From sequence record OK322699.1: a stretch of 64,000 bases of DNA; one strand, 5' to 3'. Shown piece after piece: positions 609 to 25,534 of this stretch; the first letter of the stretch is position 1; the number at the start of each line of letters is the position of its first letter. Source of the DNA: Escherichia phage Sa157lw. The notes beneath the pieces are model-generated. The model saw only the letters and a program-made list of their open reading frames with translations. It ran no database searches and was not told the DNA's origin. The position numbers were made by a program, and so were the translations under genes.

Positions 609-1271
609 ATGTCGTATTCGCTCAAAGGGTTGTTGAAGCGCCCCGTACATCTGTTTGTAAAACCACCTGCTGTCGAAGGGGAATATCCGGCACGAGGAGA
701 GTTGTATTACGTTAAAGGCTCCAACGGTAGCGGCAAGTCCACTGTCCCTTCCTATCTGGCGGAGAATGATCCTCAGGCGTATGTCGTGACCTACAATGGC
801 AAGATCATGCTCACAGTTTGCCCTTCCTATAACATTATCTGTATTGGTAAATATGACAAGTCTAAGTCTAAAGGTGTTGATTCCCTGAAAGATACCGAGC
901 AGATGTTGTTCGCCTTGTCCATTGCTGATCAGCCGGAATATCTGAAATATGACGTGTTGTTTGAAGGAATCATCCCTTCAACTTTGCTCAGCTCATGGAT
1001 TCCCCGCCTGACGCGCCCACCGCGCGAATTAGTCGTGCTCTTCATGGACACCCCGCTTGAAACCTGTGTTTCCCGTGTGAAATCACGCAACGGCGGCGCA
1101 GACTTCAATGAAAGCCTGGTTGTCGAAAAGTGGGAGAGAGTTCATGACCACCGCCAACGGCATAAAGGCTTGTTCCCTACCGTTCCCGCAGGTATGATGA
1201 AGTCCAATGGCCTGACTATAGAGCAGGCTGTTTTTGCGTTTCTCAATCGTGATTTTGGGAGTATTGATTGA
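609..1271 (+). CDS. P-loop nucleotide/polynucleotide kinase-like protein
   Basis: Walker A GSNGSGKST near N-terminus (resembles the T4 Pnk kinase P-loop GCPGSGKST); ATG 609 preceded by GGAG; track ORF 597 begins at TTG. Confidence 0.55.
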   Translation: MSYSLKGLLKRPVHLFVKPPAVEGEYPARGELYYVKGSNGSGKSTVPSYLAENDPQAYVVTYNGKIMLTVCPSYNIICIGKYDKSKSKGVDSLKDTEQMLFALSIADQPEYLKYDVLFEGIIPSTLLSSWIPRLTRPPRELVVLFMDTPLETCVSRVKSRNGGADFNESLVVEKWERVHDHRQRHKGLFPTVPAGMMKSNGLTIEQAVFAFLNRDFGSID

Positions 1272-2311
1272 TGGAAATTTTTGCTTTAAACAATAATGAT
1301 ATGCTGAAGAAGGCTGTGTTGGCCATCCGTGAACACGGCATTGAGTCAGATCCTGGCAACGCAGAGATTAACACTGACGGCACTCGTTTCATTGATGGTG
1401 TAACAATTACAGTATCAGATCCACGTGACCGTTGGCTTTCCGTTGAAGGCCGCAACTCGTCGGCAATTGCTGCCATCGGTGAGACATTCTGGGTGTTGTC
1501 CGGACGTAATGATATCCGTTTCCTTTCGAAAGTCTTACCCCGCGCCGCCAACTTCTCTGATGACGGTGTAACCTGGCGAGGCGCGTATGGCCCACGTCTG
1601 TACAATAATGGCCAGTTGGATAGTGTCATCAGCCGTCTGCGTAATAATCCCAACACCCGTCAGGCGTATCTCACCATCTATGATCCGGCGCTGGACTCAG
1701 ATGAAGGTTTGGCCACCCATAGTGAAACTGGAGAAGCCAAGACCAAGGACATGATCTGTAATCTTGCTCTATTGTTCAGTATAACAGAAGGGCGATTGAA
1801 TATCACTGTCATTAACCGCAGCCAAGATGTCTTGTGGGGCATGAGTTCAATCAATTTCATTGAATTCTCTATCCTGCAAGAAGTTCTGGCGAAAGTGCTG
1901 AATGTCGAAGTTGGGTATTACAAACTGTTTTCTAACAATCTTCATTATTACAACAATGAAGTTAGTCGGAAACAACTCGGGGGTATCACTAAGAAGACCA
2001 AAACTTCTTCTGGGATGTACAATTCTTTGCTGGAATTCTCTTCAGAAAAAGTGAAGTCCCAAAAAGATATTTGTAATCTATTCCTCGGCGTGTTACAACA
2101 CTGTGACATCGGCAGTGATTTTGGTAAAATCAGAGAACATCTGAAAGGATATCAAGCAGACACGGGATTGATGATGGATATGTCATATTGCCTGTGGTGT
2201 CGCCTCAATGATACCAAAATTGACAAACGCCGTATCGCTGATGACGGTCTTCGTACTGCATTACTGCATTCCCCTGTTGATCAGAAATTTATGTGGGGGT
2301 ATGGCGAATGA
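1271..2311 (+). CDS. thymidylate synthase-family enzyme (ThyA or dUMP hydroxymethylase)
   Basis: TS-fold motifs RQAYLTIYDP, Cys in DMICNLAL, RSQDVLWGMSSINF with Asn at the pyrimidine-specifying position; about 80-aa C-terminal extension. Confidence 0.7.
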   Translation: MEIFALNNNDMLKKAVLAIREHGIESDPGNAEINTDGTRFIDGVTITVSDPRDRWLSVEGRNSSAIAAIGETFWVLSGRNDIRFLSKVLPRAANFSDDGVTWRGAYGPRLYNNGQLDSVISRLRNNPNTRQAYLTIYDPALDSDEGLATHSETGEAKTKDMICNLALLFSITEGRLNITVINRSQDVLWGMSSINFIEFSILQEVLAKVLNVEVGYYKLFSNNLHYYNNEVSRKQLGGITKKTKTSSGMYNSLLEFSSEKVKSQKDICNLFLGVLQHCDIGSDFGKIREHLKGYQADTGLMMDMSYCLWCRLNDTKIDKRRIADDGLRTALLHSPVDQKFMWGYGE

Positions 2312-20968: not shown

Positions 20969-21319
20969 TTATTCAGTGCACGCTTTACCGAGGTCTGTAA
21001 GTCTATAGAATGTTACTTCAGACTTCGGCCAATGTTTATATTCTTCAGAGTTGTCATGAACCATTGTAAACGCAGGTTCGATCAGACCTTTAGATAATAA
21101 TGATTGCCCTGAACGTGTATCCCACGGATCACCTTTTACAGAACGAAACCCACCAGCAATCGGAGGGGTATGGAATGTCCATACTGTCTTGCCCTTTTCA
21201 TTCGTCCAAGACTTCGGATTGAAATACCAATGACAAAGGCGTCTGGCTTCACCCTTTTCAAAATTTAACATTCCTAAAAGGACGCAGAGTTGATGTCCTG
21301 TGATGCGTGGCTTTTTCAT
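20969..21319 (-). CDS. hypothetical protein
   Basis: 116-aa ORF. Confidence 0.4.
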   Translation of the reverse strand: MKKPRITGHQLCVLLGMLNFEKGEARRLCHWYFNPKSWTNEKGKTVWTFHTPPIAGGFRSVKGDPWDTRSGQSLLSKGLIEPAFTMVHDNSEEYKHWPKSEVTFYRLTDLGKACTE

Positions 21320-21648
21320 AAGATCCCCAAGTCAGTAAGGTAACGATAAAACAAGATTATAGACAGAAATCCAATTAACATCCAAGACGACAGGATAGGC
21401 TTGCAATTTAGCGTAGTCTTTCCATTGGGTATGTTGGGACTTCCAGTAATAACAACCGAATCCGTTTTAGCTCTCAGCGTCATGACAGAACCCATGAGAA
21501 TGATTGGGCGCACATAATGTCCTTCATTATTGCGCTTTACGATACATGGTGAAGAAAATCGCAGGAACGGATCACCGCTTTTATAACCGAATAACTCGAC
21601 CTTTTGTATTTCTTCGGGTACTTTCTGACCAGGAAAGAATATTTTCAT
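21316..21648 (-). CDS. hypothetical protein
   Basis: 110-aa ORF. Confidence 0.35.
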
Positions 21649-22223
21649 AATACAATTCCTAAATTTGTGTATAACAACTCAGCCAGGGTTACAGGACGCT
21701 TGAATTGTTCCCAACTGCAGTTCAGGTATTCGCGCTCTTCGCGGATATTTTCGTGAAGATGACCATGGATATTATACGCCCAACGGTCTAATTGATAAGG
21801 AACATGTGTTGTCAACACACGGCCAACAGGCGTGTCACGTTCGTACATAGCGCCGAAGGAGCTAATCCAGCCGTCCATATACAAAGACAACAGCATCTTA
21901 AAGCTGTCATGGTTGCCTTGTGCCACCCTGATGATAAAGTTCGGACGCCAGTCATCGGGAACGGGGCGTCGCTTAAACTCATCAATGTTTCGCTTGGCAC
22001 CCTCCCGCATCAGGCGAATGAACCCTTCAGCCCCGATGAAGCATATATCACCAGCCAGTTCAAGAACGTCCCGAGACTTCAACCCCTGAAAGATACTGTC
22101 AATGACCGCAGCGTCATGGGCTTCCTGTGTATCAAATCCACGCGGTTTAAAGACCTTCTTATGCCCAAGATGAGTGTCACCAAGGTGCTTTACAATTCCC
22201 GCCATTATGGTTTCCTCAGCCAT
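21645..22223 (-). CDS. calcineurin-like metallophosphoesterase
   Basis: GDTHLG, GNHD and HGHLH metal-binding motifs. Confidence 0.6.
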
Positions 22224-22546
22224 TCTAAAATTGGTACGTTCACAAACCCTTTGTGCCAGCGGTGAGGTTTATGGCCTCTGTTGTGATCCAGTAAGCACGT
22301 GTCAGGAGGAACACTGAAGTGAATGCCTTCAATGTCATAATAATTCCCATCAATCAGGGTGTATACATGACCTTCAATCTGGCTATAATGGATCTCTGCT
22401 TGGGGATATACGTGCTTCAGAACCAGAGCAACCTGATAGCACTTTCCGTTCTTCCCAACATACTCGACATCGACCTGTTGTGGGAACACGTCTTTGATAA
22501 GATTTATCAATCTCGTGATATCATTTACAACAACCGAACATTTCAT
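22205..22546 (-). CDS. hypothetical protein
   Basis: 113-aa ORF. Confidence 0.35.
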
Positions 22547-22548
22547 CT

Positions 22549-23211
22549 CTATGATAACTCATGGCGATGTCGAACACAGGCAGGGCAATTACAGTCTTTT
22601 CTCAAAATTGGCATTTCACACCACGTCATCAAACCATGTATTGGAGACATGTGGTGATAAAACCATGATTTTTTGAGACTAATCAAAGGATATAAAATTT
22701 CAATTGGCCTTTCCCCGTCTCTTGTCATCATATTGTATCCTTCGATGACCTTATTGAAAGCTGGGATCCAGTGGATCGCGTCGTCCCCGTTGACATATGC
22801 CAATATGTATGTGGGAGGCAAACTCCGGCCTTTAAATTGTGTGTTTAATAACCATATCGGGGATTGTGCTAGACACGCACGAAACCCGCCGTCCGGCACG
22901 TGAATGCTACTAATCGGTTCTTGGTGATGAGTCCAACGATGCATAAGAAGCGGAGCATTCTTGTTGATCCAATTATAAATTTTATTTCGCGCCCAATTTT
23001 CGCGTTTAGATTTAAATTTATTATTTTCGAGGTGGCAATACACAGTATGAACTGAATATCCTTTCGATAACAACCAAATCAACATGTATGTGCTATCCAC
23101 CCCACCAGACCAGAACAACGTCACTTCTTGATTATTCTCCGGCAATGGAGCATCCCCTTGAAGAACACGGTATACAAAATCACAATCAGATATTGAGACA
23201 ACAATTTCCAT
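22549..23211 (-). CDS. PP-loop ATPase, QueC-like
   Basis: SGGVDS PP-loop near N-terminus and C-terminal Cys cluster CNCPAC. Confidence 0.55.
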   Translation of the reverse strand: MEIVVSISDCDFVYRVLQGDAPLPENNQEVTLFWSGGVDSTYMLIWLLSKGYSVHTVYCHLENNKFKSKRENWARNKIYNWINKNAPLLMHRWTHHQEPISSIHVPDGGFRACLAQSPIWLLNTQFKGRSLPPTYILAYVNGDDAIHWIPAFNKVIEGYNMMTRDGERPIEILYPLISLKKSWFYHHMSPIHGLMTWCEMPILRKDCNCPACVRHRHELS

Positions 23212-23507
23212 TAAAATATTCCTCTTAAAGAATCATTTATCCTGCGCAATTCGTTTTCCACTTTTATCTTCATATTTTTATCGTCGTTCACGAAAATCAT
23301 TTTATCTAAATCTTCGCCATTAATCTTTGTATAAAAATAAATGTCATGCTCAAAGAAAATAGTTTTTCCAACAGAACGCATGGCAAAGAACGTTGCGATA
23401 GTTCTTGGTAAAGGTTTGAATTTAATGGCATTGAAACGCAAAGCCTGATAGAGAGGTTTTAATGTTCCTAAGCGAATACAATGCTGGATAATTTCTTGCT
23501 CTTTCAT
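23211..23507 (-). CDS. hypothetical protein
   Basis: 98-aa ORF. Confidence 0.35.
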   Translation of the reverse strand: MKEQEIIQHCIRLGTLKPLYQALRFNAIKFKPLPRTIATFFAMRSVGKTIFFEHDIYFYTKINGEDLDKMIFVNDDKNMKIKVENELRRINDSLRGIF

Positions 23508-24580: not shown

Positions 24581-24917
24581 CAGTTTCCCCTGCTTTCTCT
24601 AAAAGGAGTTTCAAAGGATATGTCCCACAAGCGGTGGCATACTCGACTTTGAAATATGAATTATCGTTCATGGCGAAATTTCGATGTGGGAAATATTCCC
24701 CGTCATCCAACCCGCCTAATCCCCCGCCGACGCGATATTGTTTCAACTCAACTTCGCCGCCATAACGGAGTTGGGCATATAGTCCGATAGGAGCGCGAAC
24801 GTAATGCTCCAGCCATACCCAATTTCCATCGTGTAAACGTGTAGGGATAAATGCAAAACGCACCTTGGGATGAAGAACGGCTTTGGCGAGCATCTCTTCT
24901 GTTATTTCACGCTTCAT
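24573..24917 (-). CDS. hypothetical protein
   Basis: 114-aa ORF. Confidence 0.35.
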   Translation of the reverse strand: MKREITEEMLAKAVLHPKVRFAFIPTRLHDGNWVWLEHYVRAPIGLYAQLRYGGEVELKQYRVGGGLGGLDDGEYFPHRNFAMNDNSYFKVEYATACGTYPLKLLLEKAGETDV

Positions 24918-25534
24918 CCAATACCTTCCTCTTCGATGATATCTTCTTCACTAGAGACGACAGAGATTCCGTAGTCTACCATCTGGGAAAGTTCTTGTAA
25001 ATCTTGTTCAAACCCGTCACCCTTTCGGATATAAAAGACGGGTACGACACGACGCCTGGTATCTTCGAAGATAGTCTCCGCGATTTTATTAATCTGGCTC
25101 ACTACATGAAACAGTTTCAATCCACCGATGCCACAGCCGATGGCGGGTAAACCGACATAGACTGTTTCGTCGGTTTTTGCCTCAATGATATCGTGAACTT
25201 GTTCAAACATAATCTGAACTGAACTGATAATGGAAGGCATGCGTGCGTTAGGACCAGGGTAGAACTGAGTATACAAATTGAATCCCCAGACACCAGTGTC
25301 ATGATCAAACGCATAGGACATGTTCCCCAAACGTTGTTCCGGACCACGTTCATCTAATTGGTCGGCGCGGTAAATCTCTGGGAAATTCAATCGAACGTGA
25401 TTGGCGATACCCGCGCCCATTACAGACCAACAATTTGCGCCGTGAGCAAAGGCATTGATAAGATTGAAACTCGTGGCGGCTTTTAATAAATCGCCATTTG
25501 TGATAATATAAGTGGTCATGCGTAACGTCTCCAT
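24914..25534 (-). CDS. macro-domain (ADP-ribose binding/hydrolase-like) protein
   Basis: NAFAHGAN...MGAGIA and GLPAIGCGIGG resemble macro NAAN...GGGV and PAISTG motifs. Confidence 0.5.
   Translation of the reverse strand: METLRMTTYIITNGDLLKAATSFNLINAFAHGANCWSVMGAGIANHVRLNFPEIYRADQLDERGPEQRLGNMSYAFDHDTGVWGFNLYTQFYPGPNARMPSIISSVQIMFEQVHDIIEAKTDETVYVGLPAIGCGIGGLKLFHVVSQINKIAETIFEDTRRRVVPVFYIRKGDGFEQDLQELSQMVDYGISVVSSEEDIIEEEGIG

Follow-up and report, generated by a model that had tools for sequence, protein, structure and literature searches.

The stretch of DNA analyzed here, hereafter the window, comprises 64,000 nucleotides of Escherichia phage Sa157lw (OK322699.1) and represents a Kuttervirus (Ackermannviridae; ViI/CBA120-like). 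We focused on an open reading frame (ORF) of this window that encodes a single-domain protein of 220 amino acids (aa) related to QueC and to Cap9, the QueC-family enzyme of type IV CBASS (for cyclic oligonucleotide-based antiphage signaling system). The coordinates of this ORF and of the other features are listed in Table 1. The start codon shares bases with the stop codon of a preceding 98-aa gene in the sequence TAATG. A 4-kb stretch around the gene matched 196 phage records, with a top identity of 96.5%. About 165 phages of Salmonella and E. coli encode the protein at 93–97% identity. The identity falls to 54–64% for the members from Klebsiella and Enterobacter, and further to 37% for Erwinia phiEa2809, 29% for Serratia Kevin and 24% for a member from Vibrio. 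Given this family-wide conservation, the gene is real and under clear purifying selection. In addition, mass spectrometry picked up one peptide from the homologue in Sajous1 (PMC10892097).

Family assignment and orphan status

The profile of phrog_1550 matched the protein almost from end to end (E 1.8e-78, aa 1–219). The Pfam QueC model (PF06508) scored 23.9 bits, slightly more than its gathering score (22), and covered aa 33–64 alone, whereas the QueC equivalog TIGR00364 gave 17.7 bits against a cutoff of 150.3 and covered aa 33–58 alone. When the phrog_1550-type family profile was aligned with canonical QueC by hhalign, the probability was 97.6% (E 3e-12) over 177 columns. As judged from these alignments, the protein is homologous to QueC along its full length, at the superfamily level only. 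It has the SGGxDS loop at the end of β1 in a Rossmann-like α/β fold, as in the PP-loop (N-type) ATP pyrophosphatases. Its top structure and profile matches were Cap9 and QueC, roughly equal, with Cap9 (PDB 9NTO) as the closest structure; the Cap9-type model of PADLOC gave 25.1 bits over aa 26–82. A structure search of BFVD returned only unannotated or automatically annotated phage homologues. The family is the same as that annotated as ‘QueC-like queuosine biosynthesis’ in phrog_1550 and as ‘singleton QueC-like’ by Hutinet et al. 2019. Thus, the term QueC-like, which had been applied to the protein from the sequence alone, stands for the superfamily but not for QueC proper, because the equivalog score is far too low and the YxQxHxxE, VPxRN and YPDC motifs are missing. 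The sequence-only reading had also named a result that would overturn it, namely assignment to an unrelated PP-loop family with a known non-nucleobase substrate. We looked for such a family, and none claims the protein.

We also considered a tRNA-modifying PP-loop enzyme, which would act on phage or host tRNAs by thiolation or by a lysidine-like activation of C2 or C4. The tRNA PP-loop equivalogs of NCBIfam (ThiI, MnmA, TilS and TtuA/NcsA) scored 13–20 bits against cutoffs of 94–284, and the Pfam models of ThiI (19.5 bits, gathering score 20.5) and MnmA (17.1 bits, gathering score 20.6) also fell short, all matches being confined to the generic PP-loop region. RNA-binding domains (THUMP, PRC-barrel, TilS C-terminal or any other) are lacking, as is a TtuA-type Fe-S cysteine triad in the catalytic domain, and the nearest relatives of the protein are QueC and Cap9 rather than tRNA enzymes. 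Although the window carries four tRNA genes, these lie 35 kb away, and the phage-wide context of the family consists of DNA replication genes and not of tRNA clusters. Taken together, these results make a tRNA-modifying enzyme highly improbable. Six tRNAs are annotated in the corresponding region of the closest relative of the window.

This closest relative is Salmonella phage vB_Sen_ST2 (OR710291), of which the whole genome was assembled and searched. The sequence-only reading had regarded the gene as an orphan, with the rest of a 7-deazaguanine pathway missing from the window, and had left three options: partners outside the window, the use of a host intermediate, or a different ATP-dependent amidation, possibly on a modified base. 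The DpdA, FolE, QueD, QueE and Gat-QueC proteins of phage 9g were used as phmmer queries against the six-frame translation of the window, in which they found no match (best E 0.43). Against the complete OR710291 sequence, the same queries gave no match at E ≤ 1, and the PHROG-style annotation of that genome listed no other queuosine or deazaguanine gene. The gene is therefore an orphan in the window and in the genome of a close relative, and the option of partners outside the window found no support. As a positive control, phage 9g Gat-QueC found the canonical QueC of L021, an uncultivated phage locus described below, at 2e-13, and it missed the window ORF even at E 10. Hutinet et al. 2019 (PMC6884629) had already described the gene as a singleton and flagged it as probably belonging to another ATP-pyrophosphatase subfamily, and in their similarity networks the Kuttervirus singletons were unconnected to the QueC and Gat-QueC clusters. 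In other words, both the orphan observation and the doubt about a true QueC identity were published in 2019. Our literature searches turned up no functional study of phage QueC-like singletons, and a 2026 survey of PF06508 did not treat the viral QueC-like clade.

Table 1. Positions of the QueC-like gene, its conserved elements and other features; coordinates refer to the window unless a locus (L021, L037) is named
Feature	Coordinates	Strand	Remarks
QueC-like ORF	22549..23211	(-)	220 aa, ATG start; virus-specific QueC/Cap9-superfamily PP-loop ATP pyrophosphatase (phrog_1550)
Ribosome-binding site AAGAGG	23221..23226	(-)	9 nt 5' of the QueC-like ATG; read from the sequence
PP-loop SGGVDS, aa 35-40	23092..23109	(-)	G37, D39 and S40 in 170/170
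N63-N64-x2-K67-x3-E71 block	22999..23025	(-)	Replaces canonical YxQxHxxE; N63 157/170, N64 161/170, E71 168/170
Y139-V-N-G-D143-D144-A145-I-H-W148 block	22768..22797	(-)	In the place of the YPDC region; Y139 166/170; position 148 aromatic in 160/170
K181 of P175-L-x4-K181	22669..22671	(-)	169/170; counterpart of QueC K165 and of Cap9 PF(x)4K
Putative Zn site C198-E199-x7-C207-x-C209-xx-C212	22576..22620	(-)	QueC-type four-Cys cluster
‘Phage YunG-like protein’	22205-22546	(-)	Downstream neighbour; PF24591, E 3e-44
Metallophosphoesterase (phrog_547)	21645-22223	(-)	Downstream neighbour; overlaps the YunG-like gene by 19 nt
DUF7618 protein	21316-21648	(-)	Downstream neighbour; E 1e-53
206-aa protein, phrog_335 ‘phosphatase’	24914-25534	(-)	E 1e-74; no Pfam family
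Homologue of ViI gp67 (YP_004327432), 5-hydroxymethyluracil DNA kinase	609-1271	(+)	P-loop GSNGSGKST
Thymidylate-synthase-like gene, candidate dUMP hydroxymethylase	1268-2311	(+)	347 aa; directly downstream of the kinase
Four tRNA genes: Ser(GCT), Ile(GAT), Asn(GTT), Met/Ile2-type(CAT)	57598-58720	(-)	
Canonical QueC, L021	2423-3220		
phrog_1550-type QueC-like, L021	10004-10759		
Canonical QueC, L037	3428-4231		
phrog_1550-type QueC-like, L037	9998-10708		

Retained and replaced residues

Residue counts were made over 170 family members, consisting of 25 Ackermannviridae-like proteins and 145 distant representatives. The elements that serve ATP in QueC and the four cysteines of a putative zinc site were retained. 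Both the PP-loop (aa 35–40) and the QueC-type cysteine cluster (C198-x8-C207-x-C209-xx-C212), which had been pointed out from the sequence alone, were confirmed. D143 and C198 are present in all 170 members, and C207, C209 and C212 are each present in at least 165. The spacing within the cluster is CxC in the window protein, in contrast to CxxC in QueC and in the distant family members. The residue after the first cysteine is E199, kept in 166 members; canonical QueC has Tyr at this place, whereas Cap9 has Glu (‘CE’).

The features of canonical QueC have been given as SGGxDS, YxQxHxxE, VPxRN, YPDC, K165 and C(x)8CxxCxxC, and mutagenesis showed that Y35, R99, Y131 and Y189, the last of which lies in the Zn motif, are essential for queuosine (Q) formation (Libby et al. 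2026, PMC13329287). Within the YPDC region, of Cap9 as of QueC, Tyr forms a stack with the 7-deazaguanine and Asp recognizes its Watson-Crick edge (Gao et al.). None of the motifs YxQxHxxE, VPxRN and YPDC was found in the window protein. The region of YxQxHxxE reads Y58-CHLE-N63-N64-KF-K67-SKR-E71, so that the essential Y35 is placed opposite N63 by hhalign. VPxRN is absent, and the canonical Arg (R99) is opposite Q116 in the HMMER alignment or F110 in that of hhalign; Q116 is found in 160 of the 170 members. An arginine 1–5 residues from the canonical one, R111, is kept in 23 of the 25 Ackermannviridae-like members, and the distant members do not have Arg at this position, the commonest residue there being Asn (40/145). 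The YPDC region reads N141-G-D143-D144-A-I-H-W148-I-P, which contains an Asp and an aromatic residue in a different order and spacing.

The replacements constitute a clade signature, WSGGxDST / NN..K...E / Q...W / Y...DDA..[YFW] / PLx4K / CE..CxxCxxC, and every residue of it is present in the window protein. Because the new residues are kept across 170 members, the alignment indicates that the replacements are not decay. Compared with canonical QueC, the phage protein has kept neither YxQxHxxE, VPxRN and YPDC, nor the C-Y of the Zn region, nor the linkage to queD, queE and folE. Given this rebuilt pocket, the option that the protein uses a host intermediate, 7-carboxy-7-deazaguanine (CDG), is unlikely.

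We also compared the protein with the two QueC-superfamily enzymes of defence systems, of which Cap9 attaches a ligand to a protein N-terminus in anti-phage immunity and QatC probably does likewise. Cap9 keeps a CDG-binding core, Y/FxQ(x)5E, RN and H(x)4YxDCxxxF, whereas these motifs are absent from the window protein and across the phrog_1550 family. The Zn motif of Cap9, CE(x)6CxxCxxCxD, shares its first two residues with C198-E199 of the phage protein, in which the spacing is x7 and then CxC and the trailing D is missing. PF(x)4K of Cap9 is paralleled by P175-L-x4-K181. Cap9 is encoded beside its substrate, a CD-NTase (cGAS/DncV-like nucleotidyltransferase), in defence islands, whereas the phage protein is viral and has no fixed neighbour; no CD-NTase is annotated in OR710291, and no match to a tRNA-guanine transglycosylase (TGT) or DpdA-like protein of the Cap10 type was found in the window or in OR710291. 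QatC of the QatABCD system resembles the phage protein in that its CDG-recognition residues are remodelled and its ATP and Zn sites are kept. However, QatC has about 400 aa with N- and C-terminal extensions, motifs of its own and an obligate complex with QatB, in contrast to the 220 aa of the phage protein. The QatC model gave no match to the window protein at E ≤ 1, and QatA, QatB and QatD were not present.

Distribution and genomic context

A word-indexed protein search recovered only 20 clusters, all Ackermannviridae-like. The clade proved much larger when a profile was run exhaustively against 1.84 billion representatives of clusters at 50% identity: 1423 of them matched at E ≤ 1e-3, and 637 did so at E ≤ 1e-10. 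The clade thus has at least 637 such clusters, which extend over Ackermannviridae, jumbo phages and abundant uncultivated phages. Among the 150 matches listed, most have about 180 to 300 aa and match end to end. All 62 sampled clade members belong to phrog_1550, and 59 of them touch Pfam QueC weakly, the best E being 1.2e-10. The ten longest family members have C-terminal tails without a Pfam domain, apart from a weak HTH_23 match in one of them (P0038), which is below threshold (20.1 bits, gathering score 24.6). The cultured carriers are several genera of Ackermannviridae and jumbo phages of Ralstonia, Pseudomonas (Noxifer, BRkr and PS119XW) and Burkholderia. We also scanned one genome per species for 185,579 bacterial and archaeal species with one peptide pattern, so that the outcome is a lower bound, and a single full-length relative flanked by insertion sequences turned up. 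This only full-length relative found in a cellular genome (L085, 7896-8582) lies in a chromosome-level metagenome assembly (OW818669.1), has 43% identity to a member from a jumbo-phage contig, and is solitary, beside two copies of an IS3-type transposase pair and with no phage gene within 8 kb, an uninformative context. By these searches, the clade is essentially confined to viruses.

To describe the context of the gene, we called and clustered the ORFs of 65 diverse IMG/VR loci, many of which are mutually related and thus not independent. The QueC-like gene shares its strand with replication genes (SNF2, PolB and DnaB-like helicase) and is separated from them by a few bases. There are at least three arrangements. 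In the first, an SNF2 helicase, a 120-aa protein in part of the loci, the QueC-like gene and a family-B DNA polymerase of about 1220 aa are followed by a NUDIX gene about 5 kb further on. In the second, a 150-aa protein precedes the QueC-like gene and an SNF2 helicase follows it, and in the third, a DnaB-like helicase and, in some loci, a small HAD-like protein precede it. This adjacency to helicases in rearranged orders is suggestive.

Two of the loci, L021 and L037, are related contigs of uncultivated T4-like phages, and in these a canonical QueC with the YPDCR motif occurs 6–7 kb upstream of the QueC-like gene within one replication module. QueD, QueE, FolE and DpdA were undetected nearby with the phage 9g queries, so that this canonical QueC also looks like a singleton. 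Since the two genes occur together, we argue that they are non-redundant. This bears on the possibility that the window protein is a genuine synthase of 7-cyano-7-deazaguanine (preQ0) or 7-amido-7-deazaguanine (ADG), which would act on host-made CDG and either boost Q in tRNA of the host or phage or feed a DNA-insertion route that escaped detection. Such a role would fit the full-length homology to QueC including the Zn cluster, the Pfam match just over the gathering score, the production of CDG by the host, and the presence in the window of a tRNA-Asn(GTT), which belongs to the Q-family tRNA type. However, besides the canonical QueC of L021 and L037, the low TIGR00364 score, the replacement of the Q-essential Y35, R99 and Y189, the loss of YPDC, the lack of DpdA or TGT in the genome (window and OR710291 searched), and the QueC that the host itself has all speak against it. 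The Kuttervirus singletons also lie outside the QueC/Gat-QueC network clusters (Hutinet 2019, PMC6884629), and QatC, which is similarly remodelled, fails to complement ΔqueC. We therefore regard preQ0 or ADG synthesis as the least probable of the roles considered, and the protein is very probably not a preQ0 synthase.

The protein of about 120 aa mentioned above is a family encoded directly upstream of the QueC-like gene, often overlapping it, in 27 of the IMG/VR loci (for example, L043 4514-4876 and L063 7434-7796). Its most conserved part, the N-terminus, reads M-[G/A]-x-x-Y-x-W-x-x-N-P-F-[RQ]-D, which is kept in 25 of the 27, and the family has no Pfam or PHROG match. By analogy with the N-termini of CdnD and QatB, this protein may be a protein substrate of the QueC-like enzyme: the sequence is reminiscent of the N-terminal Gly of CdnD and of the MGTS of QatB (Gao et al.). 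This leads to the main rival explanation, in which the phage protein would be a modifier of the Cap9/QatC type that adenylates a small carboxylate and links it with a partner protein, from the phage or from host defence, at the N-terminal amine. On the phage side, it would thus mirror or antagonize immunity of the deazaguanylation type. In its favour, the structure nearest to the window protein is that of Cap9, the two proteins have the ‘CE’ and P-x5-K features in common, and the gene is coupled with the 120-aa protein in the 27 loci from uncultivated phages. However, no homologue of the 120-aa family was found in the window by HMM (hidden Markov model) search (best E 0.19), many loci of the same uncultivated lineage do not have it, and no neighbour is conserved with the gene within Ackermannviridae. 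Moreover, the CDG-binding motifs of Cap9 (YxQ, RN and YxDC) are not kept, and CD-NTase, Cap10/TGT and QatB-like genes are not present. Overall, we consider a protein modifier of this type possible but unlikely.

In Ackermannviridae, the gene lies within a leftward early/middle block together with DexA exonuclease, a metallophosphoesterase, a dCMP deaminase and topoisomerase II. An all-vs-all BLAST that included the neighbours in Erwinia, Serratia and Vibrio phages found no conserved partner beyond the synteny with the phosphoesterase and the dCMP deaminase. The neighbours also differ from the QueC-like gene in their distributions: only 99 records have the upstream 98-aa gene, whereas 227 (phages of Vibrio and Pseudomonas among them) have the YunG-like gene and 641 the phosphoesterase. 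Hypothetical proteins surround the QueC-like gene in three further phages, namely Vibrio phage YC, Pseudomonas phage Noxifer and Ralstonia phage FLC4-11C. Relatives of the 206-aa window protein in Table 1 are annotated as phosphatase or serine/threonine phosphatase.

Kutterviruses carry 5-(2-aminoethoxy)methyl-2'-deoxyuridine (5-NeOmdU) in place of about 40% of T, and this base has been reconstituted on 5-hydroxymethyl-2'-deoxyuridine (5-hmdU) DNA with ViI gp67, gp160, gp226, gp243 and gp247 only (PMC8989533). The QueC-like protein is not among these enzymes. Its length and gene number are similar to those of gp67, the 5-hmdU DNA kinase established by experiment, and we rejected this identity because gp67 matches a different ORF of the window (Table 1). 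The kinase is labelled ‘terminase small subunit’ in relatives annotated by RefSeq or pharokka, which is a mis-annotation, as the real small terminase of OR710291 is at 101383-102063. The 5-hmdU DNA kinase occurs in 402 phage records, including 19 from Dickeya, 45 from Klebsiella and 54 from Pseudomonas phages, whereas the QueC-like gene is absent from the Dickeya records, occurs in only 7 Klebsiella records, and is found in the Ralstonia, Noxifer and Burkholderia jumbo phages, genera that are not listed among the kinase carriers. Each of the 19 Dickeya (Limestonevirus) records has the kinase but not the QueC-like gene, and the same holds for most records from Klebsiella; this patchiness within Ackermannviridae implies repeated loss of an accessory gene. 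Because the pathway was reconstituted without it and the phyletic distributions differ, the QueC-like gene is accessory in Ackermannviridae and not coupled to the known thymidine-hypermodification pathway. An action on a modified base, which the sequence-only reading had raised as a possibility, thus finds no support in this pathway.

These results also bear on the possibility that the protein acts in, or elaborates, the route that turns 5-hmdU into 5-NeOmdU, one way being to adenylate O-serinyl-thymidine (O-SerT) at its carboxylate, or to act on another DNA base. The phage encodes the pathway, with the gp67-type kinase beside the thymidylate-synthase-like gene, O-SerT bears a free carboxylate, which is the usual type of PP-loop substrate, and the QueC-like gene lies among DNA metabolism genes. 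Bacillus phage SP-15 has hypermodified thymidine. The same phage is named among those with a QueC singleton (Hutinet 2019, PMC6884629). However, both the reconstitution without the QueC-like protein and the mismatch with the kinase records count against such a role, which we consider very doubtful. To our knowledge, ViI DNA is not reported to contain any further base.

Proposed activity and its implications

We propose that the protein is a diverged, virus-specific PP-loop ATP pyrophosphatase of the QueC/Cap9 branch, which would be functional, act on a substrate other than CDG, and serve as a stand-alone accessory enzyme; we put the probability of this reading at about 0.5. According to the review passage cited in PMC13376578, a PP-loop ATP pyrophosphatase adenylates its first substrate at an oxygen, either carboxyl or carbonyl, and releases pyrophosphate (PPi), and an N or S nucleophile then displaces AMP. 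We infer this family chemistry for the phage protein because its ATP/PPi loop is intact, as are the conserved Asp, the conserved Lys and the four Cys of the putative Zn site. Since the CDG pocket of QueC and Cap9 has been rebuilt as a clade-wide signature, the first substrate is most likely not CDG. Most likely, the protein thus forms an adenylate and works as a ligase or amidotransferase on a substrate other than CDG, and a different ATP-dependent amidation is the best supported of the three options that the sequence-only reading had left.

In the proposed mechanism, a carboxyl or carbonyl oxygen of the first substrate would be adenylated with ATP, PPi would be released, and a nitrogen nucleophile would then attack the adenylated substrate. 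The enzyme would be a stand-alone accessory to the early/middle block of DNA-replication and nucleotide-metabolism genes. Our favoured guess is that the first substrate may be a small molecule resembling a nucleobase or nucleotide, or else a group on DNA that is being replicated, because the conserved pocket is rich in Asn, Gln, Asp and Glu and the gene lies in a replication-module context.

Several points weigh against this proposal. The PP-loop chemistry is deduced solely from membership of the family. D143 and W148 are placed differently by HMMER against 3bl5, by HMMER against Cap9 and by hhalign, and R111 of the Ackermannviridae proteins sits 1–5 residues from the canonical QueC Arg. As these alignments conflict and R111 adjoins the canonical residue, the Asp/aromatic pair D143/W148 may still hold a purine-like base. 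Common ancestry within a few lineages, and not function, may account for the position in replication modules, given how tightly genes are packed in the early regions of phages. Finally, the gene has been lost from the Dickeya and most Klebsiella Ackermannviridae, and it is therefore not needed for core replication.

We also considered a more speculative possibility, namely that the clade is a very large, virus-exclusive third QueC-like branch, besides Cap9 and QatC, that would conjugate a non-CDG ligand to a protein N-terminus or to replicating phage DNA in an ATP-dependent manner. A protein target is suggested by the tight coupling of the gene with the M-G/A-initiated 120-aa partner in uncultivated phages, and a DNA target by the recurrent adjacency of SNF2 or DnaB helicases and PolB. 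We regard this as rather unlikely. If it is true, then phages use the chemistry of bacterial deazaguanylation immunity, possibly as counter-defence.

Compared with what was published in 2019, this analysis adds explicit evidence that the protein departs from the signatures of canonical QueC and of Cap9, the clade-wide signature that replaces them, the size and virus-exclusivity of the clade, its association with replication modules, and its decoupling from the thymidine pathway. The annotation ‘QueC-like queuosine biosynthesis’ is probably misleading, and the gene should not count as evidence for 7-deazaguanine DNA modification when phage genomes are annotated. Given that the QueC fold has recently been found to conjugate ligands to proteins in immunity, a large phage clade with a rebuilt pocket is worth testing. 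The identification of the substrate would assign a function in well over 100 genomes of therapeutic-candidate phages (such as CBA120, ViI, Det7 and SFP10), and it could uncover a new modification, of nucleotides, DNA or proteins, that phages employ.

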